NCBI GenBank assembly: GCA_028572065.1
Contig: JAPVWK010000048.1
Coordinates: 1-14,292 of the forward strand
Length of the DNA: 14,292 bases
Source: Candidatus Methanophagales archaeon
GTDB taxonomy: Archaea > Halobacteriota > Syntropharchaeia > Alkanophagales > Methanospirareceae
Direction of reading: 5' to 3'
How positions within the stretch are numbered: the stretch's first letter is position 1; every line of letters begins with the position of its first letter. Shown in pieces: positions 1,055 to 14,292 of this stretch. A program made the position numbers and the translations under genes. Under the pieces are notes generated by a model. That model had not been told where the DNA came from and ran no database searches. It saw only the letters and a list, made by a program, of their open reading frames with translations.

Positions 1055-2080
1055 ATGAACACTAATAGAATGGATATATGGATATTCACAGTGCTAACAC
1101 TCGCTTTCACGGCAGCACTCGCTTTTTCTGCTTTTGCGGTAAGCGCCGAAATGCTCGAAGTAACTGACGACTTCGGTAGGAACGTAACCCTCCCCGGGTA
1201 TTCGGAAAGAATCATCTCGTTATCGCCAACCAATACGGAAATACTATTCGCTATTGGCGCCGGTGACAGAGTCATAGGTGCAACAGATTACTGTAATTAC
1301 CCTGAAGAAGCGAAAGAAATTACGCGGGTTGGTGGCGTTTCCACGGTGAGCATAGAGAAAGTAGTAGCATCAGAGGCCGATCTCGTGCTCGGCTGCGCGT
1401 TGAACAGCAAAGAAACAGTTGAGCGGTTGACAGAGCTGAATGTAGCGGTCGTATCACTGAATCCTGTGACCATTCAGGAGATACAGGACGATATAATGCT
1501 GGTAGGACGTTTAACAGGTAAAGAAGAGAATGCTACTGCTTTAGTCGCCGATATGGCACAAAGATTAGAAGCGATAAAAGCGCGAACTGTGGACGTGAAA
1601 CGCCCGAAAGTCGCTCATATTACATGGCATGACCCGCTCTGGGTTGCAGGTGGCGGCACCGTACAGGACGAGTTGATAGAACTAGCAGGTGGCGATAATG
1701 TCTTTTCAGACAAAAAAGAGTGGGATACGGCGAGTCTGGAAGAGTTCATAGATCGCAACCCTGACGTCATTATCGTATCGGTTGGGCATGGCGTTGCGGG
1801 CATGCAGCCGTATGATTATATACTACAAGAGGAGCGGCTGAAAGTAGTGAATGCCGTTAAAAACGGTAGAGTTTACACTATAGATGCGGACATCGCGTCT
1901 CGAGCAGGACCCCGGATAGTAAACGCAACAGAGATTGTTTATGAGTGTCTGTCCGAATCGTCCGGCGATACGGAGACGCCCACACCAGAGCCTGCCGGAT
2001 TTGAAGCGGTATTAGCAGTTGCGAGTTTACTTGTGGTATTGTGCTTCTTAAGAATAAAGACAAGAAGGAATAAAAATTGA
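1055..2080 (+). CDS. ABC-transporter periplasmic (surface) substrate-binding protein, Fe-siderophore/cobalamin class (Peripla_BP_2), with C-terminal PGF-CTERM-like anchor
   Basis: Signal-peptide-like N-terminus (IWIFTVLTLAFTAALAFSAFAVSA). The core motifs RIISLSPTNTEILFAIGAGDRVIGATDYCNYP and ADLVLG are typical of BtuF/FhuD-type binding proteins. The tail is a Thr/Pro linker (GDTETPTPEP) followed by PAGFEAVLAVASLLVVLCFLRIKTRR. Confidence 0.85.
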   Translation: MNTNRMDIWIFTVLTLAFTAALAFSAFAVSAEMLEVTDDFGRNVTLPGYSERIISLSPTNTEILFAIGAGDRVIGATDYCNYPEEAKEITRVGGVSTVSIEKVVASEADLVLGCALNSKETVERLTELNVAVVSLNPVTIQEIQDDIMLVGRLTGKEENATALVADMAQRLEAIKARTVDVKRPKVAHITWHDPLWVAGGGTVQDELIELAGGDNVFSDKKEWDTASLEEFIDRNPDVIIVSVGHGVAGMQPYDYILQEERLKVVNAVKNGRVYTIDADIASRAGPRIVNATEIVYECLSESSGDTETPTPEPAGFEAVLAVASLLVVLCFLRIKTRRNKN

Positions 2081-2085
2081 TAATC

Positions 2086-2105
2086 GGACGCAGATGAACG
2101 CAGAT
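2086..2105. repeat. left inverted-repeat arm flanking the GxxExxY fragment (GGACGCAGATGAACGCAGAT)
   Basis: Its reverse complement, ATCTGCGTTCATCTGCGTCC, matches the right arm ending ATCTGCGTCC at 2301-2310. The GCAGAT/ATCTGC unit is reiterated on both sides. Confidence 0.6.
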
Positions 2106-2291
2106 AATCAGGATTTTAAATATACGGTATTGACGGAGGAGTTTATTAGAATTTTCTATCGAGTTTATAATAAACTGGGTTATGGTTTTCTGGAAAAGGT
2201 TTATGAGAATGCAATGATGATGGAACTGAATTTTGGCACGAAACCGGAAGTCAAACGTAAGGCATTTGATTTTCTGCGTAAATCTGCGTAA
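2094..2291 (+). pseudogene. truncated GxxExxY-family (PD-(D/E)XK-like) gene remnant
   Basis: The 65-aa ORF carries the family N-terminal signature (IRIFYRVYNKLGYGFLEKVYENAMMMEL, that is G..E..Y). It loses similarity after about 45 aa and stops at roughly half the family length of about 125-130 aa (length from memory). Confidence 0.6.
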
Positions 2292-3584: not shown

Positions 3585-4529
3585 TTATTTTGAGTACATA
3601 CTCTGTTGAATGTCCTTTCCCAGCTTGCCAATAGCATCAGCACGGCAATGCCGGCAGTGAGTCATCTCTTTCACGTACTCGCGGCATTTCTCCTGAATCG
3701 CCTCTTTCTCTTGCTGTGTCGGTGGTTTAATATTCGCGAACTTGTACTGCGGGATGAGCGGGATAATATTGTGCATATAAACGCCCAGCTTACTTATCTC
3801 CTTCGCTACCTCCACTATATGCTCATCATTCACCGTAGGTATAAGAACAGTATTAACTTTTATCAGTATCTTACGTTTCACCGCCTCGCGAATGCCTTCC
3901 AATTGGTTCTTCAGCAGTATCTCCGCACCTTCTTCGCCTTTATAGCGTTTACCGTTGTAATTGACGACTGAATAGATGTCCTTACCTATCGCAGGGTCTA
4001 TAGCGTTCAGTGTAACGGTTACAGTTCCGATGTCCAACTCTTCTATCTCGTCAATCCGTTCTGGCAAAAGCAGCCCGTTCGTGCTCAGACAGCGCATCAG
4101 GTGTGGGAACTCATCCTTCACGAGCCGGAACGTCTCGAATGTCTCTTCGTTAAACAGTGGCTCGCCGGGTCCCGCAACGGCAACTACCTTAATGTAATGC
4201 ACCTTTTCCATTACATCACGTACCCGTTCTAACGCTTCCTGTGGCGTTAGCACCTTGCTCGTCACTCCGGGTCGCGACTCATTCACGCAATCGAATTTCC
4301 GTACACAGTAATTACACTGGATGTTACACTTCGGTGCCACCGCGAGATGTATTCTGCCGAAGAAATGACAGGCGTTTTCACTGAAACAAGGATGTTCACT
4401 AATCTTTCTGAGCTGCGCAGGGTCCCAGGGTACTTCTTTGCCTTCTACATTGGCAGTGGGTAAATCACCCCCCTCGACACTACCCCCCTGCATCTCAACC
4501 ATTCCCTTTTTTGATGCTACTTCACTCAT
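3585..4529 (-). CDS. nifB: NifB, radical SAM FeMo-cofactor (NifB-co) biosynthesis protein, minimal archaeal form without a NifX-like domain
   Basis: HPCFSENACHFFGRIHLAVAPKCNIQCNYCVRKFDCVNESRPGVTSKVLTPQEA closely follows the NifB signature around the CNIQCNYC cluster motif. The C-terminal HCRHCRADAIGKLG matches the conserved CxxCRADAxG block. Confidence 0.85.
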   Translation of the reverse strand: MSEVASKKGMVEMQGGSVEGGDLPTANVEGKEVPWDPAQLRKISEHPCFSENACHFFGRIHLAVAPKCNIQCNYCVRKFDCVNESRPGVTSKVLTPQEALERVRDVMEKVHYIKVVAVAGPGEPLFNEETFETFRLVKDEFPHLMRCLSTNGLLLPERIDEIEELDIGTVTVTLNAIDPAIGKDIYSVVNYNGKRYKGEEGAEILLKNQLEGIREAVKRKILIKVNTVLIPTVNDEHIVEVAKEISKLGVYMHNIIPLIPQYKFANIKPPTQQEKEAIQEKCREYVKEMTHCRHCRADAIGKLGKDIQQSMYSK

Positions 4530-4555
4530 ACGTATACTTCTCCCGATATATGAGT

Positions 4556-5227
4556 TTATAAAACATCTTTCTTGAATTCCTCAAGTCCAACTTCTTTTAT
4601 ATACCTGCCCAATCGCTTTTTTGTGTCGCAGTTCTTGTAGTAATTGATAACTCGATCAGCAAGAGCCATAGCTTCATCATCACTCAAATTCTCCGTCAGA
4701 ATTTCTGCAATCGCAGGTGCGGCACCTGCGGAACCTCCGACCACCACTTTCCAGCCCTTTGGCATACCGATGAAGCCTAAGTCTTTTATCCAGGACTCCG
4801 CACAGCTATTACTACAACCGGAAACGCCGATCTTGAACTTTGAGGGCAACTCCAACCCATGATACTTGCTATCAAATTCCAAGCCTAATTTCACCGCATC
4901 TTGCTTGCCTCTTTTACAGAACGTAGTACCCGGACAGATTTTTACGCTTCTGATACATAACCCGATAGCCGCAGCCGGTGGCATATCGAGGTCACGCCAG
5001 GCAGCGTCTATATCGCTCTCTGCTAAACCCACAATTGCTATTCGTTGTGCCGAGGTCAATTTTAACGCTGCAGCATTGTATTTCTCCGCGACATCTGCTA
5101 TTTTCCGTAGCGTACAAGGTTCGCAAATCCCGCCCGGCATCTGCGGCGCAATCGCATACGTTTCATAATCCCGCTGGACAATTGCACCTTTATCCAACAG
5201 GTCTTTCTTCTTCTCTTTTTCTTCCAT
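4556..5227 (-). CDS. small sirohaem-[4Fe-4S] sulfite/nitrite reductase-like protein (low-molecular-weight assimilatory-type, alSir-like)
   Basis: 223 aa. The cysteine pattern is C-x5-C (CPGTTFC) followed by C-x3-C (CSNSC), as in the NIR_SIR sirohaem/Fe-S site. An N-terminal NIR_SIR_ferr-like half-domain is present (YAIAPQMPGGICEPCTLRKIADVAEKY...LKLTSAQRIAIVG). The size matches the ~23 kDa Desulfovibrio-type small sulfite reductase. Confidence 0.7.
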   Translation of the reverse strand: MEEKEKKKDLLDKGAIVQRDYETYAIAPQMPGGICEPCTLRKIADVAEKYNAAALKLTSAQRIAIVGLAESDIDAAWRDLDMPPAAAIGLCIRSVKICPGTTFCKRGKQDAVKLGLEFDSKYHGLELPSKFKIGVSGCSNSCAESWIKDLGFIGMPKGWKVVVGGSAGAAPAIAEILTENLSDDEAMALADRVINYYKNCDTKKRLGRYIKEVGLEEFKKDVL

Positions 5228-5230
5228 TTT

Positions 5231-5629
5231 TTAGTTACTCCTTTCTTTATAATTCTTAATCGCTTTTTGCAACGTCCTTTTAGATAAACACGTGCAATGT
5301 ACCTTCTGTGCAGGAATACCACCCAGATAATCTATTATCTTATCTTCCTCTATCTTCTCTGCCTCTTCTAATGTCATTCCTATTATCCTTTCTGTAAGGG
5401 CAGAGCCAGACGAAAAGGCTCCTGCACAGCCTATCGCCTGGAACTTAGCCTCTTTTATCACGCCATCTTCTACATTCAAAAAAATCTCCATTGTATCGCC
5501 ACAAGGTCCCGTATATATCGCATGAGCATCTGGCTCGCTTAGCTCTCCGACATTCACTTTGTTCATATAGTACTCAATGGCTTTCTCTGAATATCCTGAC
5601 TCTTTCAACAGATCTTGCATTTCACTCAT
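5231..5629 (-). CDS. NifU N-terminal/IscU-like Fe-S cluster scaffold protein
   Basis: 132 aa with the three scaffold cysteines in the expected contexts (GPCGD, IGCAGA, KVHC) and the typical length. Confidence 0.8.
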   Translation of the reverse strand: MSEMQDLLKESGYSEKAIEYYMNKVNVGELSEPDAHAIYTGPCGDTMEIFLNVEDGVIKEAKFQAIGCAGAFSSGSALTERIIGMTLEEAEKIEEDKIIDYLGGIPAQKVHCTCLSKRTLQKAIKNYKERSN

Positions 5630-5645
5630 TTTTTAATCACACTGT

Positions 5646-5656
5646 TATTTTATTAT
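5646..5656 (-). promoter_or_regulatory. possible internal TATA-like box (ATAATAAAATA on the minus strand) for the NifU-like/Sir/NifB genes
   Basis: An AT-rich box lies about 27 nt upstream of the ATG at 5629. That ATG has no SD, unlike its neighbours, which fits a leaderless or short-leader transcript. Confidence 0.25.
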
Positions 5657-5688
5657 CGCCGTGTCTTTTTATGATTTGCTATTTTTTG

Positions 5689-6882
5689 CTAGCCGTTGAT
5701 TATACCCTGCTCCTTATGCTTATTCGCGATTCCATCTGCTAACCGATCCAATGCTTTGAACGCCTCTTCTCCTGGTACTCCTTTAACAACAACGGGCTCC
5801 AGCAGTTCTACCTTTAAATTTGGTATCATACCTGTAAGTTGTTCCACCATTCTGCTACCCCAACCGTAAGACCCGATGATAGATGCAAATTTCAGCTTTG
5901 GCCTCAACGCATTTGCGAGACAAGCCGCATAAACCACTTTCGGATGCGGTCCTACCAGAACAGTTGGAGATCCGATTACAACAGTAGCTGCATCTACTAA
6001 CGCCATCGCTAATTTACCAATATCCGGTTCTGACAGATTAAACAGCTTTACTGTTATGCCACGTTCGATCAAAGCCTCTGCGAAGTGATCTACCATCTTC
6101 TTCGTGCTGCCGTGCATTGAGATATAAGGTATAACTACCTCATTCTTCACATCGTCAGAAGCCCAATCCCTGTAAGCATTGAGAATAAAATTTGGCTCTT
6201 TATACGCGGGACCGTGACTCGGTGCTATTATATCTATTGTCAAATCGTTTAGCCGTGCTAAGTTCTTCTTTATTGTTGGCCGGAAAGGCATCATGATCTC
6301 TGCATAGTATCGCTTGGCTGCCTCATAGACTGTCGCCTCATCGGTTACAAACAAGTCGCTGGTTGCGAGATGCGAGCCAAGGAAATCGCAGGTAAAAAGC
6401 ATCCGGTCTTCTCTTAGATATGTCAGCATAGTCTCTGGCCAGTGTACCCAAGGTGCATGGACGAACTCCAGTGTTTTGTTGCCCAATGACAGCGTCATGC
6501 CATCTTCAACGGTTATGAATTTATCCTGGTGTATCAAAAGCGAATCCATAAGCAAATCCTTACATTTCGGTGTGCAGACCACCTTAGCGCCTGGATATAA
6601 CTCAAGTATCAGGGGTAAAGTACCTGAATGGTCTTGTTCGGCGTGATTGGCAATGACGTAATCTATATCTCCTGTCTCAAGTTCTTCAAGATTTCTTATT
6701 AGCACGTCCGCCATGGTCGGGTCTACAGTGTCTATCAGTGCCGTTTTTTCGCTGCCTCGTACTAAATAAGAGTTATAGCTTGTTCCGTCTGGCAGTGGGA
6801 TTAATTCATCAAATAGCCTCCGGTCCCAGTCAATTGCGCCCACTGCGTAAATTCTCGGTTTCAGTTCTCTTTTGTGACTCAT
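5689..6882 (-). CDS. flavodiiron protein 1 (metallo-beta-lactamase-like diiron domain plus flavodoxin-like domain)
   Basis: Diiron motif HAEQDH (H-x-E-x-D-H) and a C-terminal flavodoxin-like domain (VVIPYISMHGSTKKM ... IGSYGWG). Its ATG follows the rubredoxin stop directly (TAAATG). Confidence 0.9.
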   Translation of the reverse strand: MSHKRELKPRIYAVGAIDWDRRLFDELIPLPDGTSYNSYLVRGSEKTALIDTVDPTMADVLIRNLEELETGDIDYVIANHAEQDHSGTLPLILELYPGAKVVCTPKCKDLLMDSLLIHQDKFITVEDGMTLSLGNKTLEFVHAPWVHWPETMLTYLREDRMLFTCDFLGSHLATSDLFVTDEATVYEAAKRYYAEIMMPFRPTIKKNLARLNDLTIDIIAPSHGPAYKEPNFILNAYRDWASDDVKNEVVIPYISMHGSTKKMVDHFAEALIERGITVKLFNLSEPDIGKLAMALVDAATVVIGSPTVLVGPHPKVVYAACLANALRPKLKFASIIGSYGWGSRMVEQLTGMIPNLKVELLEPVVVKGVPGEEAFKALDRLADGIANKHKEQGIING

Positions 6883-7020
6883 TTAAGCCACTTCCTCAAA
6901 CGCTTCTTTACCTACACCACAGTCGGGACATACCCAGTCATCAGGTAAATCCGCAAATGCCGTTCCACTCTCTTCTTCGTCATATATATAGTCACATACA
7001 GTACATTTCCATTTTGCCAT
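6883..7020 (-). CDS. rub: rubredoxin 1 (45 aa, missed by the ORF track)
   Basis: Hand translation gives [45 protein letters not shown]. It has the two CxxC pairs and the classic rubredoxin core. AGGAGG lies 10 nt upstream of the ATG. Confidence 0.92.
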
Positions 7021-7055
7021 TTTTCTTATTCCTCCTTTTATTTTAGTACTTGCTC

Positions 7056-7125
7056 ACCGCTGAGCACGCGGAGAACGCGGAGTATCTCCCTTTGTCATCT
7101 CAGCGTTCTCCATGTTCTCGGCGGT
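7056..7125. repeat. imperfect palindromic intercistronic element, copy 1 (flavodoxin 1 / rubredoxin 1 spacer)
   Basis: The arms are ACCGCTGAGCACGCGGAGAACG (7056-7077) and CGTTCTCCATGTTCTCGGCGGT (7104-7125). By hand pairing they form about a 22-bp stem with a few mismatches or wobbles and a 26-nt loop. Confidence 0.75.
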
Positions 7126-7131
7126 AAATAT

Positions 7132-7563
7132 CTATTTTATCTTCTCCGCAATCTTCTTCCCGAACTCGCGGCATTCTTCCAGCCCCTTCTCGGTTGGTCT
7201 TCGTTTTATTCTCAGTCCAGGTTCTATCACGTCCATCCCTGCGAGATTGTTCATCGTTTCTGTCAATATCTCTATGGATTCGCCACTCCAGCCGTAAGAC
7301 CCGAATGCCGCACCAACCTTGCCTTTCAAGTCCGTATTATCCATCACGAAAAGAAAAGTCTTCATCGCTGCTATCAGACTACGAACATAAGTCGGAGACC
7401 CGAGCACGACCGCATCCACGTTCTTGAGGTCATCCACATTTGCATGTGCCGCTTTTTTCAGTTCGACTTCAACTCCCGCCTTTTTCAAGCCCGTTTCGAT
7501 TGCTTTTGCCATCATTTCGGTATTACCCGAACGAGTTTCATATATTAATATTGCTTTTGCCAT
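7132..7563 (-). CDS. short-chain flavodoxin 1
   Basis: 143 aa with the FMN phosphate loop (YETRSGNTE), VVLGSPTY and AAFGSYGWSGE. GGAGGA lies 8 nt upstream of the ATG. Confidence 0.85.
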   Translation of the reverse strand: MAKAILIYETRSGNTEMMAKAIETGLKKAGVEVELKKAAHANVDDLKNVDAVVLGSPTYVRSLIAAMKTFLFVMDNTDLKGKVGAAFGSYGWSGESIEILTETMNNLAGMDVIEPGLRIKRRPTEKGLEECREFGKKIAEKIK

Positions 7564-7614
7564 TTTTTATTCCTCCAGTTTTGTTTCATCTTGTCATTGC
7601 CATATTTCGAATTT

Positions 7615-7675
7615 ACCGCGGAAAACGCTGAGTTCACAGAGAAAAAATCTCTGCGTCCTCCGCGAACTCTGCGGT
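7615..7675. repeat. imperfect palindromic intercistronic element, copy 2 (inverted orientation; FDP 2 / flavodoxin 1 spacer)
   Basis: The arms are ACCGCGGAAAACGCTGAGTTCACAGAG and CTCTGCGTCCTCCGCGAACTCTGCGGT. The right arm matches the reverse complement of the copy 1 left arm at 22 of 27 positions by hand alignment. Confidence 0.65.
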
Positions 7676-7700
7676 TAATCTGTTTTTACCTCTCTTCTAC

Positions 7701-8882
7701 CTACTCCTTTTTGATGACCGCTCCTAACTCCTTACCTGCTTCTTTTACTTTATCCAACTCCCCTTCATCCGGGATATACTGAATTTTAACGCCTTCAACA
7801 GGCATGTCCCATCCAAGGTCATTCATGATTGTTTCCATCTCTTTTACTGCCTGCCCTCCCCAGCCATAAGACCCGAATGCAAAACCAATTCTGTTTTTTG
7901 GGCGCAATCCCTTCAGATACGTGAGGAACGCTCCTACCGATGGAAAAATACCGTTGTTCAAAGTGGGGGAGCCAACCAGTATAGCTTTTGAACGGAGGAC
8001 ATCAGCCATTATATCCGAGATATGAAGCGTTTTTAAGTTACGCATGGTAACAGGAATACCTGCCTTTTCCAGACCAGCCCGTAAGCTATGTGCCATCTTC
8101 TCTGTTGAGCCCCACATGGTATCATAAATGATGACCGCCCGGTTCTCTGCCGTGTTGGTTGCCCACTTCTGATAGGCTTCTAAAATCTTTGGTAAATACG
8201 TTCGCCAGATTATTCCGTGTCCCGGTGCAACTATCTCTAGGTCCAGTCCTGAAAGTGCATCCAGCGCTTTTTTTACCTGGTCGCCATAGGGAAAGACAAT
8301 GTTGGCATAATATTTCGCAGCTTCTTCGTGAAGAACGTCCCACCCGATCTCATCATCAAAGCGTTCAGGCGTAGCAATATGCTGCCCAAATGCGTCATTA
8401 GAGAGTAGTATCTTCTCTTCCGGTAGATAGGTAACCATGTTATCCGGCCAGTGTACCATAGGCGTGAGGAAGAACTGCATGGTTCGTTTACCGATGTTTA
8501 TAGTATCTCCGGATTTCACTACTACAAAGTCCCAATCCTCTTTATAATGCCTACGCAAACCTTTTTCACCATTAGGACTAGTTACTACTTTCGCATCAGG
8601 CGCAAGCGCTAGGATTTTTGCTAAATTGCCTGAATGGTCCATCTCCACATGGTTAGATACCACATAATCAATTTTAGAGGGGTCAACCACTTCGCTGATG
8701 CGGGCTAACATCTCATCAAACAGATAGTGCTTTACCGTATCTACTAATACAATCTTTTCGTCCATGATGAGGTATGCGTTGTACGTGGCACCTCTTTGCG
8801 TCAGGTAACCATGGAAATTACGCACATCCCAGTCTATACCTCCGACCCAGTAGATTCCTGGTTTTATCTCTATGGGCTCCAT
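7701..8882 (-). CDS. fprA: flavodiiron protein 2, FprA-like (methanogen F420H2-oxidase-type subfamily)
   Basis: The start is set at the internal Met (MEPIEIKPGIYWVGGIDWDVRNFHGY...), because the upstream part of the 431-aa track ORF overlaps rubredoxin 2. Diiron motif HVEMDH and flavodoxin domain (VIIYDTMWGSTEKMA ... FGSYGWGG) are present. The overall pattern resembles methanogen FprA, from memory. Confidence 0.9.
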   Translation of the reverse strand: MEPIEIKPGIYWVGGIDWDVRNFHGYLTQRGATYNAYLIMDEKIVLVDTVKHYLFDEMLARISEVVDPSKIDYVVSNHVEMDHSGNLAKILALAPDAKVVTSPNGEKGLRRHYKEDWDFVVVKSGDTINIGKRTMQFFLTPMVHWPDNMVTYLPEEKILLSNDAFGQHIATPERFDDEIGWDVLHEEAAKYYANIVFPYGDQVKKALDALSGLDLEIVAPGHGIIWRTYLPKILEAYQKWATNTAENRAVIIYDTMWGSTEKMAHSLRAGLEKAGIPVTMRNLKTLHISDIMADVLRSKAILVGSPTLNNGIFPSVGAFLTYLKGLRPKNRIGFAFGSYGWGGQAVKEMETIMNDLGWDMPVEGVKIQYIPDEGELDKVKEAGKELGAVIKKE

Positions 8883-8883
8883 A

Positions 8884-9021
8884 CTAACCTTCCTTCTCGA
8901 ATGCTGCTTTGTCTGCACCACAGACGGGACATTCCCAATCGTCAGGTAAATCGTCAAATGCCGTTCCCGCTTCTTCTTCGTCATAGATATAGCCACAGAC
9001 GGTACATATCCATTTTGCCAT
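8884..9021 (-). CDS. rub: rubredoxin 2 (45 aa, missed by the ORF track)
   Basis: Hand translation gives [51 protein letters not shown] lies upstream. Its TAG stop is 1 nt from the FDP 2 ATG. Confidence 0.92.
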
Positions 9022-9050
9022 TTCTCATCTACCTCCTATTAAGTTGGCTT

Positions 9051-9119
9051 ACCGCTGAGCACGCAGAGAACGTAAAGAGCTTTCATTGTCAACTCTGCGG
9101 TCTCCATGTTCTCAGCGGC
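9051..9119. repeat. imperfect palindromic intercistronic element, copy 3 (flavodoxin 2 / rubredoxin 2 spacer)
   Basis: The arms are ACCGCTGAGCACGCAGAGAACG (9051-9072) and CGGTCTCCATGTTCTCAGCGGC (9098-9119). Against copy 1, the left arm matches at 21 of 22 positions and the right arm at 19 of 22. Confidence 0.75.
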
Positions 9120-9129
9120 AAATAAAAAT

Positions 9130-9561
9130 TTATTTTATCCTCCCCGCAATCTTCTTCCCGAATTCTTTGCACTCCTTTTCTCTTGTAACTACTTCCATGC
9201 CTTTCATCTTCAAATCCGGCTCAATCATGTCCATCTCAAAGATATGCTTCATCGTATCGCTCATCATCTCGACAGCTTCACCACTAAAGCCATAAGTACC
9301 AAATGCCGCCCCGACTTTTCCTTTCAAGTCCACTTTCTTCATCTTGAATAAGAACATCTTCATCGAGGAGATCATGTCATGGTGGTAGGTGGGACTTCCG
9401 AGAACAACAGCATCCACGCCTTCGAGGTCTTCCTCCTTTGCTGCCAGGACCTTTTTCAATTCCACGTCCACTCCTGCCCCTTCCATGCCTACAACGATTG
9501 CTTTTGCCATCGTTTCCGTATAGCCATAATTGGTATCATAAATTACTATTGCTTTTGCCAT
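9130..9561 (-). CDS. short-chain flavodoxin 2
   Basis: 143 aa, the same length as flavodoxin 1. A gapless hand count gives 83 of 143 identical residues. Motifs: YDTNYGYTE, VVLGSPTY, AAFGTYGFSGE. AGGAGG lies upstream. Confidence 0.85.
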   Translation of the reverse strand: MAKAIVIYDTNYGYTETMAKAIVVGMEGAGVDVELKKVLAAKEEDLEGVDAVVLGSPTYHHDMISSMKMFLFKMKKVDLKGKVGAAFGTYGFSGEAVEMMSDTMKHIFEMDMIEPDLKMKGMEVVTREKECKEFGKKIAGRIK

Positions 9562-9643
9562 TTTTTCATATCACCTCCTATTTTTTTAGATTGGTTCTCC
9601 GTTGAATGCAAAGATAGCTACCTTCTTGTTCATCCCCTTACGC

Positions 9644-10162
9644 TCAACCCTCCACAGATGCCGCAGGTGGCGTAAATACCCGTGCTGCCAGTTCTTTGTC
9701 TACCATGAGCAAACCATTACCGTCTTCTCCCACGAGTTTCAACCTGGCAATGATTTCATTATCGTTACCTTCCTCTTCTATCTGTTCAGTAACGTACCAT
9801 TGCAAGAAGATATTCGTAGCGTGGTCCTTCTCCACGATTGCAAGGTCCACGAGCTCATTGATGCTCTTCGTAATGAACTTCTCGTGCACCAGAGTCTTCT
9901 CAAACATATCTAATGGCGACTCAAACTCTGTCGCGGGCTCTTCAATCGCTGCTAGCTTTACCTGCCCACCCTGATCGTTGATATAGCCGTAGATTTTCAT
10001 CGCGTGCGTCATCTCTTCCTGGTACTGCACCATGAACCAGTTGGCAAATCCCTTCAGTCCTGTGTACGAGCTGTAGGCGGACATCGCCATATACAGATAC
10101 GCTGAATACATCTCCTTGTTAAGTTGTGTATTCAGCGCTTCCTGCATCTTTTCGCTTAGCAT
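9644..10162 (-). CDS. ftn: ferritin (non-haem, Ftn type)
   Basis: The start is set at MLSEKMQEALNTQLNKEMYSAYLYMAMS, which avoids overlap with the peroxiredoxin gene; the track start at 10204 lies inside that gene. Ferroxidase-centre residue context (E..Y, QEEMTH, WYV.EQ.EE) and ~170 aa are typical. Confidence 0.88.
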   Translation of the reverse strand: MLSEKMQEALNTQLNKEMYSAYLYMAMSAYSSYTGLKGFANWFMVQYQEEMTHAMKIYGYINDQGGQVKLAAIEEPATEFESPLDMFEKTLVHEKFITKSINELVDLAIVEKDHATNIFLQWYVTEQIEEEGNDNEIIARLKLVGEDGNGLLMVDKELAARVFTPPAASVEG

Positions 10163-10173
10163 ATTTATTTTCC

Positions 10174-10824
10174 TTACCCCTGCTTTTTGTGACAGAACCA
10201 CCAATCATAGCAGTCGTATTGCTTGACTCGTTCTTTTGCGGTTTGCTCATCCGATGCCGGTGGTATTATAACCTCATCTCCGATCAACTCGTTGTTTGGC
10301 CAATTTGCAGGTATCGCCACGCCGTATTCATCATTGGTTTTAAGCCCACGTACCATTCGCAAGATTTCATCCATGTTCCTGCCGAGTTCCTGCGGATAAT
10401 AAATCATAGCTCTCATTATTCCCTGCGGGTCAACAGCAAATACCGCCCTAACCGTATTCGTGCCCTTGTTGGGATGTATAAGCCCCAGCATCTTGGCTAC
10501 TCGACCTGTGTCGTCCGCGATAACAGGAAACTTTATCTCCACGTCCAGATTATCCTTTATCCATTCCACCCATTTTATGTGGCTGAATACCTGGTCTATG
10601 CTCAATCCGATCAGCTCGCAGTCGAGTTCCTTAAAAGCCTCAAATCGTCTTTGAAAAGCCACGAACTCGGTCGTGCACACCGGAGTAAAATCCGCTGGAT
10701 GACTGAACAGGACAAACCATTTGCCCTTGTACTCTTCTGGCAGTTTCTTCTTTCCATGTGTCGTTTGTACTTCCATTTCCGGGAATTCTTCCCCAATCAG
10801 GGGCATACCTACTTCTTCTTCCAT
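10174..10824 (-). CDS. peroxiredoxin (archaeal Prx6-like / Aeropyrum-type thiol peroxidase)
   Basis: [20 protein letters not shown] contains the peroxidatic Cys. The C-terminal DCYDWWFC gives the Cys-x5-Cys pair seen in archaeal Prx. AGGAGG lies 10 nt upstream of the ATG at 10824. The Met at 10806 ([10 protein letters not shown]) is the alternative start and matches homologue N-termini. Confidence 0.9.
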
Positions 10825-10841
10825 TTTTCATATTCCTCCTA

Positions 10842-11192
10842 TTACATTTCTATACAGTTTTGCCACACACCGTGGACGTTGCAATACGCGAGTGCACAGA
10901 ACGCTTTGAATTCCGGTACGGGCACCTGGAACCTGACGTTTGGATTGGTATAACCCGCTGCGAACGCAGCCCGTCCGAGAAAAACCACCTGTCCGCCGTC
11001 TTTCTTTACGCCATACAGTTCTATCCACGCGATATGGTGCTCCGCGGTGTTAGGATGCGGCACGTCCTTACCCACTACTACTCGTACGACATCCACGTTC
11101 TCTTCTCCTCGTCCCTTGCCTGTCTCAATATAAGGGACGTGTTTCTCTTTTCCTTCGGCTTCTGCGCCTTTTAACAAATCTCCAAAATCCAT
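10842..11192 (-). CDS. sor: superoxide reductase, 1Fe-SOR (neelaredoxin type)
   Basis: Iron-site motifs GKEKHVP, HPNTAEHHI and CNVHGVW are present. The 116-aa length and order closely parallel the Pyrococcus SOR sequence as I recall it. Confidence 0.9.
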   Translation of the reverse strand: MDFGDLLKGAEAEGKEKHVPYIETGKGRGEENVDVVRVVVGKDVPHPNTAEHHIAWIELYGVKKDGGQVVFLGRAAFAAGYTNPNVRFQVPVPEFKAFCALAYCNVHGVWQNCIEM

Positions 11193-11211
11193 TTTTATTT
11201 ACATTACCTCC

Positions 11212-12567
11212 TTATTTTCCGTTCCTTCTAACCAAATAAGCCACAACTAACAGGCTTAATAACGCAAAGATACTTTCAAAACCTGGAACTCCTTCGTCTG
11301 GTGCTTTCTTACCTAGTTCTATCGTGTCTTCTGCACCTGCCATCTCTATCACCGGTGCCACGACATTACCCTTCCCGAAGAGCTCATCCAGGAACTTTTG
11401 CGATGCAGACCGGTAGTTCAACTTTGCTTCCACTGTAATTGGACCATTTACACCTACGGGTATCGCAAAATTATACTTCTCCACTCTGGTATCCTTGGGG
11501 AGTATCCGGTTATCAGAGAGCACGGATTCCGACTCCCATACTTTTACCGTTGGGTTTCCAGACGCATCTCCAAGCACTACATGGTACATCACGGCATCGG
11601 GGTCCACTTCGCCATCAGAATCAAGTCCACCTACGTGATAAAATTCTTTGCCCGAGGCATCCTTCGCCATAATCTCTATCCAGGCCTCTCTCGCCTCTGT
11701 AAGTCCGGTTGGCAACTTATGCCCCGCACCCACGTTCGTGACTTTTACCGTAATTTCAGCTTCCGAAACCTTCTTCTCGGCTTCCAGCACGAGCGTTGCC
11801 GCGGATTTCAACCGTTCCTCTGCCATTTGCTGATGCACTTCTGAACCAATAACACCGGTTACCGCTGCGTTTCCGCCTACAAAGTAATGTGTGTAAATGT
11901 GGTCCCTATCTGGTCCGATCCCTGAAGCCTTACCTGGATTTGCCTCGAAATGCGTAATACCAGGCGTCATGTGGCAGTCCTGACATTGTGTAGTCGAGTT
12001 GTACGGTCCTTCTTTCCACTCGGTATATGTCGTCTCGATTGGAATTCCGGTCACGGGATGGTTGACATCGTGACACATCCCGCAGAACTCTGATTTCGTG
12101 TGAAGGTCTGATAACATACTACCGTGAGATGGCGATTTCGAATCGTCATACGGTCCTCGTTTAAATCCGTCCAAAGCGACCATAAAAGCACCGTTTCCTA
12201 TACCCGTGGATTTATTGACGTTATGACAGAAATCGCACTGTAGCCCCTTCTTCGATACCTCACTTATGTTTTCATGTCCAATTGGAGGGACTTCACCCGA
12301 GAGGACACCGATTGGCGTGTGACACCGCGCACAGTAGGTGTCGGTTAGACCCTCCGTCTCGTTTGAAGCCATCTCTTCTTCCGCCAAATAAACCGGGTCG
12401 GTGTATGCTATTGAGTGCATCGAGCCATCCCATTGATTGTATATTTCGGCATGACAGCCCTTGCATACTGCTGGATCATCGAAATCAGAAGATTCAATAG
12501 CTCCTGCAACCATCGAACCTGCTAATAGAGTACAGACAATCGCAACTATTGGTATTATACCTCTCAT
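11212..12567 (-). CDS. secreted pentahaem c-type cytochrome with C-terminal PGF-CTERM archaeosortase signal
   Basis: There is an N-terminal signal peptide. The five CxxCH motifs are CKGCH (aa 35), CARCH (79), CDFCH (111), CGMCH (162) and CQDCH (195). A large non-haem C-terminal domain carries AGHKLPTG. The tail is VPGFESIFALLSLLVVAYLVRRNGK. The start overlaps the upstream stop (ATGA). Confidence 0.85.
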   Translation of the reverse strand: MRGIIPIVAIVCTLLAGSMVAGAIESSDFDDPAVCKGCHAEIYNQWDGSMHSIAYTDPVYLAEEEMASNETEGLTDTYCARCHTPIGVLSGEVPPIGHENISEVSKKGLQCDFCHNVNKSTGIGNGAFMVALDGFKRGPYDDSKSPSHGSMLSDLHTKSEFCGMCHDVNHPVTGIPIETTYTEWKEGPYNSTTQCQDCHMTPGITHFEANPGKASGIGPDRDHIYTHYFVGGNAAVTGVIGSEVHQQMAEERLKSAATLVLEAEKKVSEAEITVKVTNVGAGHKLPTGLTEAREAWIEIMAKDASGKEFYHVGGLDSDGEVDPDAVMYHVVLGDASGNPTVKVWESESVLSDNRILPKDTRVEKYNFAIPVGVNGPITVEAKLNYRSASQKFLDELFGKGNVVAPVIEMAGAEDTIELGKKAPDEGVPGFESIFALLSLLVVAYLVRRNGK

Positions 12568-12845
12568 TCCACCATTTCCTCCACCTCTTTCTTACCCTTT
12601 TCCAGTTCCTCGACCTGCTCCTTATCTTGCATTAGAAGCAGCGCCTGAAATTCGCCCATGTGTGTCTTCTCTTCTTTCGCTATATCCAGCAGAGCCGCTT
12701 TGACTTCTTTTCGCTCTGCCATCGCCGCGAGCTGCTCGTACAAATTCACAGCGTCCAATTCCGCGATCATACCGACACGCAATATCTCTCTATCCCTATT
12801 CTCTTTACTCACCTTTTCCAAATCTATTGGTAATTCGCTTAACAT
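12564..12845 (-). CDS. EncFtn-type ferritin-like mini-protein (encapsulin-associated ferritin family), no recognisable encapsulin-targeting tail
   Basis: ILRVGMIAELDAVNLYEQLAAMAERKEVKAALLDIAKEEKTHMGEFQALLLMQDKEQVEELEKG closely parallels the N-terminal ferritin-like domain of the Pyrococcus furiosus encapsulin as I recall it (ILRLAIIAELDAINLYEQMA...DVAREEKAHVGEFMALLL.LDPEQ). The E...EExxH metal ligands are present. AGGGGG SD lies upstream. Confidence 0.7.
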   Translation of the reverse strand: MLSELPIDLEKVSKENRDREILRVGMIAELDAVNLYEQLAAMAERKEVKAALLDIAKEEKTHMGEFQALLLMQDKEQVEELEKGKKEVEEMVE

Positions 12846-12973
12846 GTTTCACACCCCCTAAAATTATCCATCAACAATGCCGTATTTCCGGCCAATACAA
12901 ATGCAGGGTCTGTTATCACAAAATATGTGGTTCCCTCAAAATCCGCTGCTACCCTATTTTCTACCATCAGCAT
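12839..12973 (-). CDS. unannotated 44-aa ORF (hypothetical small protein)
   Basis: Hand translation gives MLMVENRVAADFEGTTYFVITDPAFVLAGNTALLMDNFRGCETC. AAGGGGGA lies 5 nt upstream of the ATG. The stop overlaps the EncFtn-like start (ACATGTTAA). It is below the ORF-track size cutoff and no family is recognised. Confidence 0.3.
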   Translation of the reverse strand: MLMVENRVAADFEGTTYFVITDPAFVLAGNTALLMDNFRGCETC

Positions 12974-13027
12974 TCAATCCCCCTTTTAGATATAACTTCT
13001 TTCGCCATATTAGTTTTTCGGTTTTTA

Positions 13028-13630
13028 TTATGGATGTTTATCAGGCGGATGACAGGTCCAACAGGAATCTTCTTTTACATCCATATCGTGGTCGTTGTGA
13101 CATGTCGCGCACTCGAAACCTGTATAATCCGGACTCTCGTAGCTTTTATATTCACCGATCTTGTGTGCCGTGTGTTCGATCGTGGCGTGGCATTTAAAGC
13201 ATGAAATTGTAGTATCCGTGATTTTTTCCGACGGTCTCTTGTGTTCGCTGTGGCATTCCATACAGTATTCGTTCTTTGGCGATGCCGGCGGCTTATTCTC
13301 CACTTGTTCAGCCATATCGTCATAAGTTCCGCCTAAACTCTTACCTTCTGTCATACCTTCGGCCATGCCTTCAACGTGGTGAAGCGCTTCCCCGATATAC
13401 AGGAACATCTCGGGCTTATGCGGCTTATGGCAGTCGTGACAGTCCACTTCCGCATGCGATGTGACCATCAAAGAGTCATAAAAAGGCTGCATCTCATGAC
13501 AGTTGGCCCCGCAACTTTCTGGTTTGTGCATCTCATGCTCCATGACTGGTACCATAAATGCCGCACCACCGATGACTCCAACGGTCACCACTACGACCAG
13601 AGCAATAATTATCTTCTCACCGGTTTCCAT
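13028..13630 (-). CDS. membrane-anchored hexahaem c-type cytochrome, NapC/NirT/NrfH-like N-terminal module
   Basis: It has one N-terminal TM helix (IIIALVVVVTVGVIGGAAFMV). SCGANCHEMQPFYDSLMVTSHAEVDCHDCHKPH parallels the NapC block (FCISCHEM..Y.......H......C.DCH.PH). Four further CxxCH motifs follow (CMECH, CFKCH, CATCH, CWTCH). A strong SD is present (AAGGAGGG). Confidence 0.8.
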   Translation of the reverse strand: METGEKIIIALVVVVTVGVIGGAAFMVPVMEHEMHKPESCGANCHEMQPFYDSLMVTSHAEVDCHDCHKPHKPEMFLYIGEALHHVEGMAEGMTEGKSLGGTYDDMAEQVENKPPASPKNEYCMECHSEHKRPSEKITDTTISCFKCHATIEHTAHKIGEYKSYESPDYTGFECATCHNDHDMDVKEDSCWTCHPPDKHP

Positions 13631-13896: not shown

Positions 13897-14292
13897 TCAT
13901 CGGCGGTAGTAACATGGTCCCGGTCTCATTATAGAAATCCCGGTTACTTCGACTTCGATAACCCCTTCCGGGGCACTATCATGTTTTTTGGTGAGCATAA
14001 AGTTTCTGCCCAGTTCATAAATTGGGCCATCGGTATGGTATCTTCCTATTCCTTTTATTTGGTATCCTTTTTCTTCTTCTGGATCCCAGTAGGAGATGCG
14101 AACGTAATTATCCTCTATTAGATCCTTCTCGTTCAGTTTCGTAAAATCACCAATGAGCAGAACCGTTTGGTCATTGCGAACCTTCTTCCAAAATACTTGA
14201 ACGGCAGTTTGATTTCTTTCTTTACCCGCGGTTTCAAATACAACTGAATCCACCTTTTCAAATATCTTTTTCAATTCATCTGGAATTATCAT
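13897..14292 (-). CDS. pyridoxamine 5'-phosphate oxidase-like FMN-binding split-barrel protein
   Basis: The 131-aa ORF has its ATG as the last three bases of the window, so the true start could lie beyond it. The pattern VVFETAGKERNQTAVQVFWKKVRNDQTVLLIGDF...NYVRISYWDPEEEKGYQIKGIGRY fits small PNPOx-family proteins. Confidence 0.6.
   Translation of the reverse strand: MIIPDELKKIFEKVDSVVFETAGKERNQTAVQVFWKKVRNDQTVLLIGDFTKLNEKDLIEDNYVRISYWDPEEEKGYQIKGIGRYHTDGPIYELGRNFMLTKKHDSAPEGVIEVEVTGISIMRPGPCYYRR

Follow-up and report, generated by a model that had tools for sequence, protein, structure and literature searches.

A 14,292-nt stretch of DNA from Candidatus Methanophagales archaeon (contig JAPVWK010000048.1 of assembly GCA_028572065.1), hereafter the window, encodes a free-standing 93-aa protein (12564..12845, minus strand) that is a half-ferritin with the fold of the encapsulated ferritins (EncFtn). 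Its gene is one component of a ~10-kb same-strand island for defence against oxygen and reactive oxygen species (ROS), and across the family the shared theme of the neighbouring genes is oxygen/ROS defence, not cytochromes. An "encapsulated ferritin" takes its definition from the shell, and without one the protein is generally considered incapable of storing iron. The 93-aa protein may be a cytoplasmic di-iron ferroxidase that works without a shell and, together with superoxide reductase (SOR), peroxiredoxin (Prx) and ferritin, keeps Fenton chemistry in check, a role predicted from its sequence to which we give about an even chance. The locus is a concrete, testable case of what a shell-less EncFtn ring may do, be it to scavenge Fe(II) or to reduce peroxide.

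A free-standing protein with the EncFtn fold

A phmmer search of the PDB gave the EncFtn domain of Pyrococcus furiosus as best match (5n5e, E 1.1e-21, query residues 14-91 against chain residues 17-94), next to the fused encapsulin 2e0z (E 9e-21). Weaker matches were Myxococcus xanthus EncB/EncC, Nitrosomonas europaea NE0167 (3k6c) and Rhodospirillum rubrum Rru_A0973. The AlphaFold2 model (pLDDT 89.2) predicts helices at residues 14-42, 46-72 and 75-92, that is, the two long antiparallel helices and short C-terminal helix of the half-ferritin fold found in EncFtn. When this model was used for a fold search of the PDB, the top 50 hits were all EncFtn-family chains, with 5n5e first. The ferroxidase centre of R. 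rubrum EncFtn consists of Glu32, Glu62 and His65, with Tyr39 nearby (PMC5012862). Through the 5n5e alignment and residue numbering these match E29, E59, H62 and Y36, so that the Glu, the Glu-x-x-His motif and the nearby Tyr of an EncFtn ferroxidase site are all present. E29, D31, Y36, E37, E58, E59, H62 and E65 do not vary among 44 close homologues, and across 81 species-level homologues their conservation is 97% or higher.

The first-pass annotation, made from the letters of the window, had called the protein EncFtn-type, and the 5n5e match, the predicted fold and the di-iron residues agree. On the level of curated profiles the picture is divided: the nearest structures are EncFtn, but Pfam Rubrerythrin (PF02915) is the sole model passed by the protein (28.4 bits against a cut-off of 22.8, covering only profile positions 1-73 of 137). 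Scores were below the cut-off for Pfam PF22277 EncFtn-like (24.7 against 27), NCBIfam EncB_fam (NF058679; 59.5 against 90) and TIGR04535 (46.8 against 125). Most close homologues bear a precomputed PF22277 hit.

The protein ends where the domain ends. Its acidic tail (...GKKEVEEMVE) aligns with the last helix of 5n5e and is therefore the third helix of the domain and not a targeting peptide, as had been anticipated in the first-pass annotation. All 81 species-level homologues end within 0-4 residues of this C-terminus, and among C-extended relatives targeting-peptide-like motifs were limited to one weak regular-expression match in 43, so they are not a family feature. The 93-aa protein has neither of the usual EncFtn attributes of a targeting peptide or fusion to a shell and, having no signal peptide, is predicted to be cytoplasmic.

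No Linocin/HK97 or other shell family was found among the open reading frames (ORFs) of the window by Pfam scan, shell hidden Markov model (HMM) or tblastn, in line with the earlier statement that the 14 kb holds no shell gene. The HMM and tblastn searches likewise found none in 1.15 Mb comprising the window and 94 related loci (at most 10 kb on each side), so that a shell gene in the operon or locus, another attribute of EncFtn systems, is missing from all of them. These searches covered locus flanks, not whole genomes, and the shell profile was built from four archaeal fusion-shell domains only, so very divergent shells may be missed. ANME (anaerobic methanotrophic archaea), Methanosarcinales, Bathyarchaeota, DPANN and CPR (candidate phyla radiation) names do not occur among the entries considered from the Andreas and Giessen encapsulin census table, which is weak evidence. 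Among the papers listed by the literature searches, none combined encapsulin with ANME, or EncFtn with superoxide reductase.

The free-standing form belongs to a large family. There are 7,674 related clusters in the 90%-identity database, the best 120 of which are nearly all 91-95 aa long and 73-98% identical to the window protein; these come from ANME-1/Methanophagales, Syntrophoarchaeum, Argoarchaeum, Methanolliviera, Bathyarchaeia and Desulfobacteria. When 50%-identity representatives were scanned in full with HMMER, 1,060 clusters were obtained, and in a data set with one genome per species relatives are encoded by at least 395 genomes. From these the best 80, 67-96% identical, were taken as the species-level sample for gene context. 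They include Methanophagales, Methanosarcinales, Bathyarchaeia, Hadarchaeota, Helarchaeota, Methanofastidiosum and Thermoplasmatota, many DPANN lineages (Woese-, Nano-, Aenigmat- and Micrarchaeota) and, among bacteria, CPR lineages, Dehalococcoidia, Nitrospirota and Actinomycetota. The closest relative of the window is ANME-1 GoMg2, and the identical protein is present on contigs from ANME-type samples and in GCA_013374425.1.

In most related loci the ORF is 91-105 aa long, and none is fused to a shell. According to phmmer coordinates only 7 of the top 150 representatives contain a shell domain; most others are free-standing, many with mis-called upstream starts, and a few have signal-peptide-like extensions. 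In a crude neighbour-joining tree that carries no support values, shell-fused sequences form a small clade nested among free-standing ones. N-terminal signal-peptide-like extensions were seen in the EncFtn-like database relatives P0141, P0153, P0161, P0177 and P0189, which are probably exported and hence unable to be encapsulin cargo.

A further architecture is found in P0176, P0201 and P0241 (47-49% identical to the window protein), where the EncFtn-like domain is followed by a long linker and a C-terminal rubrerythrin-type rubredoxin domain. In two of the three, P0176 and P0201, RUBY_RBDX is above its gathering threshold, and all three form one clade in the same unsupported tree. Judged by domain order, this would be a "half-rubrerythrin" architecture.

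EncFtn-like sequences, 41-64% identical, are also encoded by 19 IMG/VR viral contigs (L098-L116), some as proteins of ~97-130 aa and others as a domain within proteins of 488-689 aa. One of these larger proteins, that of L105, resembles P0232, which has a NUDIX domain (compare also P0167, P0238 and P0229). No homologue was found in the isolated GenBank phage genomes of INPHARED.

Among characterised systems, the Flp-fusion (ferritin-like protein fusion) encapsulin of P. furiosus (PFC_05175; 5n5e, 2e0z) is the nearest, with ~50-60% identity over residues 14-91 and the same three-helix layout, di-iron residues and length to the end of the last helix. The P. furiosus domain, however, continues through a short linker into an HK97-fold shell, whereas the window protein stops at the domain end. 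Targeted EncFtn cargo proteins (R. rubrum Rru_A0973, 5da5; M. xanthus EncB/EncC; H. ochraceum) have the same fold and the same Glu/Glu-x-x-His ferroxidase centre at the dimer interface, but they carry C-terminal targeting peptides, adjoin a shell gene and are only ~28-30% identical to the window protein, which fails the NCBIfam cut-offs. Rubrerythrin/"erythrin" peroxidases (rubrerythrin, sulerythrin, ferriperoxin) share the di-iron carboxylate site with Glu/Glu-x-x-His ligands, the Pfam match and the genomic company of SOR, rubredoxin and flavodiiron proteins, and some EncFtn-like relatives have a rubredoxin domain. Unlike them, the window protein provides half a four-helix bundle per chain and has no Cys-x-x-Cys pairs and no rubredoxin domain.

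The first-pass annotation had started from the premise that EncFtn proteins are always fused to a shell or targeted to one, which is out of date. Short ferritin-like proteins that lack a targeting peptide already have a class name, s-FLP, of which 3k6c is the type (Eren et al. 2024, PMC11202242), and Giessen and Silver described non-targeted Flps near archaeal Flp-fusion systems (bioRxiv 10.1101/085266). Like the window protein, the s-FLP NE0167 (3k6c) has ~95 aa, the EncFtn fold, no long disordered C-terminus and no recognised targeting peptide, and it is reported to form decamers (PMC11202242). Its sequence is distant (E 1e-3 to 3k6c against 1e-21 to 5n5e), and the conserved s-FLP tail LFTD(E/N)KPIAHE is missing from the window protein. 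The s-FLPs were described as mainly bacterial (PMC11202242), and the encapsulin census places Flp-fusion systems only in Archaea, mostly in Crenarchaeota (PMC8346489). By architecture the window protein qualifies as an s-FLP, but by sequence it is of the archaeal fusion type and not of the NE0167 type. In the literature searched, the size of the free-standing clade, its linkage to SOR or superoxide dismutase (SOD) and the rubredoxin-fused variants appear to be undescribed, and so does the occurrence of the clade in lineages not among the census table entries considered. Current labels for such genes, "rubrerythrin" or "demethoxyubiquinone hydroxylase family protein", deserve correction.

Gene neighbourhoods in the window and in related loci

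The features of the island and its surroundings in the window are:

13897..14292, minus strand: conserved protein, 131 aa, without Pfam or NCBIfam family; accompanies the island in ANME-1 relatives
13028..13630, minus strand: NapC/NirT/NrfH-like membrane-anchored multihaem cytochrome, 200 aa, five CXXCH and one CX3CH
12839..12973, minus strand: small ORF, 44 aa; its stop overlaps the EncFtn-like start (ATGTTAA); own GGGGGA Shine-Dalgarno-like motif
12564..12845, minus strand: EncFtn-type half-ferritin, free-standing, 93 aa, ATG start; predicted di-iron residues E29, E59, H62 and Y36; no signal or targeting peptide
12564..12567, minus strand: ATGA stop/start overlap of the EncFtn-like and cytochrome genes, kept in 6 of 7 related cytochrome-bearing loci
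11212..12567, minus strand: pentahaem c-type cytochrome, 451 aa, five CXXCH, signal-peptide-like N-terminus, PGF-CTERM anchor
10842..11192, minus strand: superoxide reductase, neelaredoxin-type, Desulfoferrodox domain; conserved downstream partner of the EncFtn-like gene family-wide
10174..10824, minus strand: peroxiredoxin, AhpC-TSA and 1-cysPrx_C
9644..10204, minus strand: canonical non-haem ferritin; true start probably an internal ATG (MLSEKMQ...)
9130..9561, minus strand: flavodoxin
7701..8996, minus strand: flavodiiron protein, FprA-type, ODP metallo-beta-lactamase domain and flavodoxin domain
7132..7563, minus strand: flavodoxin
6883..7020, minus strand: rubredoxin, 45 aa, CxxC...CxxC
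5689..6882, minus strand: second flavodiiron/ODP protein

The island order is thus NrfH-like cytochrome, small ORF, EncFtn-like gene, pentahaem cytochrome, SOR, Prx, ferritin, flavodoxins, rubredoxin and two flavodiiron proteins. The EncFtn-like gene ends in TGA, and its stop overlaps the start of the 451-aa cytochrome gene (ATGA; ...GTGGAATGAGAGG...), exactly as first noticed. The ferritin had been placed three genes downstream; it does lie in the same island, but as the fourth gene, with cytochrome, SOR and Prx in between.

For the 80 species loci, ORFs were called by a simple longest-ORF procedure with the target ORF seeded, and everything within 5 kb on either side of the EncFtn-like gene was clustered. 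Many of these loci are short contigs or bins of metagenome-assembled genomes and are possibly contaminated. The commonest neighbour was SOR, in 17/80 loci. The two neighbours on which the first-pass annotation had centred, the 451-aa cytochrome and ferritin, are found in 7/80 and 10/80, respectively. Further recurrent neighbours were Prx and SufC (9/80 each), flavodoxin/flavodiiron protein (FprA; 7/80), a NifB-like radical-SAM protein (6/80), catalase, SufBD and rubrerythrin (5/80 each), 8-oxoguanine glycosylase (Ogg; 4/80), and Fe/Mn SOD and a Fur-family regulator (3/80 each). At least one core antioxidant gene occurs in 36/80 loci, and SOR or SOD in 20/80.

The linkage with SOR is tight. In 14/80 loci SOR lies immediately downstream on the same strand, with a gap of -8 to +32 nt in 11 of the 14, and these loci span Argoarchaeum, Bathyarchaeia, Methanosarcinales, ANME-1, Hadarchaeota, Thermoplasmatota, several DPANN phyla and one CPR bacterium. 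In two Dehalococcoidia loci SOD takes this immediate downstream place. By a rough estimate, 17 SOR genes in ~0.6 Mb of flanks would exceed, by a factor in the tens, the density of a gene that each genome has in one or two copies. Many DPANN and CPR loci have no recognised antioxidant pair close by other than EncFtn-like/SOR. The Argoarchaeum cluster (EncFtn-like, SOR, catalase, Prx, ferritin, DsrE-like, flavodoxin, FprA) has the order of the window minus the cytochrome, plus catalase, and the independent loci L013 and L014 have the order DUF166, EncFtn-like, Pyr_redox_2, hemerythrin-like, SOR, ferritin, flavodoxin, FprA. A highly conserved free EncFtn form is common in strict anaerobes (among them ANME, alkane-oxidising archaea, DPANN and CPR) and tied into their defence against superoxide and peroxide.

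In several DPANN and Bathyarchaeota loci (compare L038, L051, L055 and L059) a gene for 8-oxoguanine DNA glycosylase is a neighbour of the EncFtn-like gene, and in Methanofastidiosum-type loci (compare L057, L072, L081 and L093) a neighbour encodes an O6-methylguanine methyltransferase-domain protein. These neighbours point to a wider link with the repair of oxidative and DNA damage.

The cytochrome is a far more local partner. It directly follows the EncFtn-like gene in 7/80 loci only, all of them ANME-1-like or Methanolliviera, and in two of the seven (L015 and L022) SOR was called right after it. The ATGA overlap is best described as two antioxidant-island genes adjoining in the ANME-1 lineage, with no dedicated partnership indicated. 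The closest solved relative of the cytochrome is the pentahaem cytochrome c552 5ze8, and 2,306 database relatives were found at E <= 1e-10. Homologues 46-48% identical are found in Methanosarcina sp. T3 and Methanococcoides methylutens, within antioxidant clusters that contain an AhpD/CMD-like protein, DUF2180, FMN reductases, rubrerythrin and FprA, with SOR in Methanosarcina only; no EncFtn-like gene was called in either cytochrome locus. In Syntrophoarchaeum (L097) a 65%-identical cytochrome occurs with rubrerythrin, rubredoxin, flavodoxin, SOR, ferritin, an EncFtn-like gene, Prx and FprA, the cytochrome and EncFtn-like gene being in one cluster but not adjacent. This recurrence in antioxidant clusters (L095, L096, L097) indicates that the cytochrome is itself a recurrent component of archaeal oxygen-defence clusters. 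With the NrfH-like membrane cytochrome encoded upstream, it could drain membrane electrons to extracellular oxidants. A five-haem cytochrome of unknown role, MA3739, has been reported from M. acetivorans (PMC6703419), and this may be the orthologue of the window cytochrome. Archaeal oxygen defence that regularly includes a surface multihaem cytochrome does not seem to have been characterised.

Possible functions of the EncFtn-like protein

If the protein acts as a ferroxidase, two chains would pair to form a symmetric di-iron centre at the dimer interface, with Glu29, Glu59 and His62 from each chain and Tyr36 nearby. A decameric ring is probable, as in the ~50-60% identical P. furiosus domain, judging from that identity only. 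Upon oxygen exposure, superoxide would free Fe(II) from iron-sulfur (Fe-S) clusters while SOR or SOD makes H2O2; by oxidising labile Fe(II) with O2 or H2O2 the protein would remove both Fenton reagents, and the Fe(III) product could be passed to canonical ferritin where one is present. A soluble ferroxidase is suggested by the tight link with H2O2-making enzymes, with Suf genes for Fe-S repair and sometimes with ferritin, and shell-free R. rubrum EncFtn has ferroxidase activity but stores no iron (PMC5012862). The first-pass annotation had proposed a free-standing ferroxidase working with ferritin. This is a reasonable reading, and the protein has no targeting peptide, shell fusion or nearby shell, but ferritin is a neighbour in few of the loci.

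Several points weigh against this role. The Fe(III) formed in vitro by shell-free protein precipitates (PMC5012862), and the ferritin and Prx of the same island already supply ferroxidase and peroxidase activities. Ferritin is a neighbour of the gene in only 10/80 loci, and the Pfam Rubrerythrin score is higher than the EncFtn-like score. The rubredoxin-fused P0176 and P0201 suggest that the di-iron site may be a reducible cofactor and not a flow-through iron site. Such a cofactor is the basis of the main alternative, a tentative reading which we consider possible but on the doubtful side: as a half-rubrerythrin, the protein would hold a stable di-iron cofactor at the dimer interface, be reduced by the free rubredoxin or flavodoxin of the island and itself reduce the H2O2 made by SOR or SOD (or O2). 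The superoxide detoxification pathway would then be completed, and no iron would be processed as substrate. This is consistent with Rubrerythrin as best above-threshold Pfam match, the rubrerythrin-type rubredoxin domain of all three fused relatives (47-49% identical), the tight linkage to the H2O2 producers SOR and SOD, the rubredoxin and flavodoxins encoded in the window, and the EncFtn-like/SOR pair as sole recognised antioxidant pair in many DPANN and CPR loci. In the closest characterised relatives, however, which are ferroxidases, the iron is labile and behaves like a substrate (PMC5012862). The window protein lacks a rubredoxin domain of its own, and a canonical rubrerythrin is found in the same operon at L051, L055 and L013, which speaks against simple redundancy. 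Since some loci combine the gene with canonical rubrerythrin, ferritin and Prx, redundancy can be argued in either direction; the two chemistries cannot be told apart by the ligand set.

It is very unlikely that the protein is loaded into a shell whose gene lies elsewhere in the genome, be it by co-assembly or by a short signal that escaped recognition. A 2024 review leaves encapsulation of s-FLPs possible (PMC11202242), the protein is ~50% identical to shell-fused domains, and the shell search reached locus flanks only, not the whole genome. Yet none of the 95 loci has a shell within 10 kb on either side, no C-terminal extension occurs in 81 homologues, and the family is found widely among DPANN and CPR lineages with their small genomes. 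Some relatives have signal-peptide-like N-termini and so probably act outside the cytoplasm, and, as weak evidence, the lineage names searched for are absent from the census table entries considered. Even less probable, and hardly to be expected, is a role that the first-pass annotation had also put forward, in which the protein would supply or protect iron or haem while the co-translated multihaem cytochrome matures. The ATGA overlap is conserved in six of the seven loci with adjacent genes, and both genes recur in the Syntrophoarchaeum cluster (L097), but they are not adjacent there. Adjacency is confined to the seven ANME-1-like or Methanolliviera loci, SOR or SOD fills the position elsewhere with equally tight spacing, and the Methanosarcina and Methanococcoides cytochromes lie in antioxidant clusters without a called EncFtn-like gene. 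Moreover, the EncFtn-like protein is predicted to be cytoplasmic, whereas haem is attached outside the membrane and the cytochrome is exported and surface-anchored. The window locus is an ordinary but large antioxidant island and not a new iron-to-cytochrome system.

Beyond this locus, one might speculate, with considerable reserve, that the EncFtn fold is mainly a free cytosolic antioxidant enzyme of anaerobes and a partner of SOR/SOD across archaeal phyla and CPR, possibly as an electron-fed, H2O2-removing "half-rubrerythrin", the encapsulated and shell-fused forms being small derived offshoots.

Other genes of the window

The 131-aa protein at the edge of the window is 81-96% identical in ANME-1 relatives. 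Its sole PDB similarity, to a HupZ-like haem protein (E 0.13), is not significant, and this assignment was rejected. The 44-aa ORF (MLMVENRV...FRGCETC) is conserved only in close ANME-1 relatives, with 61-98% identity, and has grown to 76-132 aa through internal insertion in L003, L006 and L008.

The whole island (3585..13630, minus strand) is unusually similar between distantly related seep archaea (compare L018, L019, L021 and L024). Between the window and Ca. Argoarchaeum, Methanolliviera and Bathyarchaeia, identities are 81-89% for SOR, 90-92% for Prx, 89-90% for ferritin, 81-83% for rubredoxin and 83-85% for FprA. Such similarity across distant lineages suggests horizontal movement of the island as a unit.

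At the other end of the window, on the plus strand, two further genes were observed:

1055..2080, plus strand: Peripla_BP_2 ABC-type periplasmic binding protein, with a C-terminal hydrophobic stretch and basic tail resembling a membrane or PGF-CTERM-type anchor
2094..2291, plus strand: 65-aa ORF adjoining the Peripla_BP_2 gene

The 65-aa ORF may be a truncated copy of PDDEXK_3; a full-length PDDEXK_3 gene is found elsewhere in the related loci L002 and L003.

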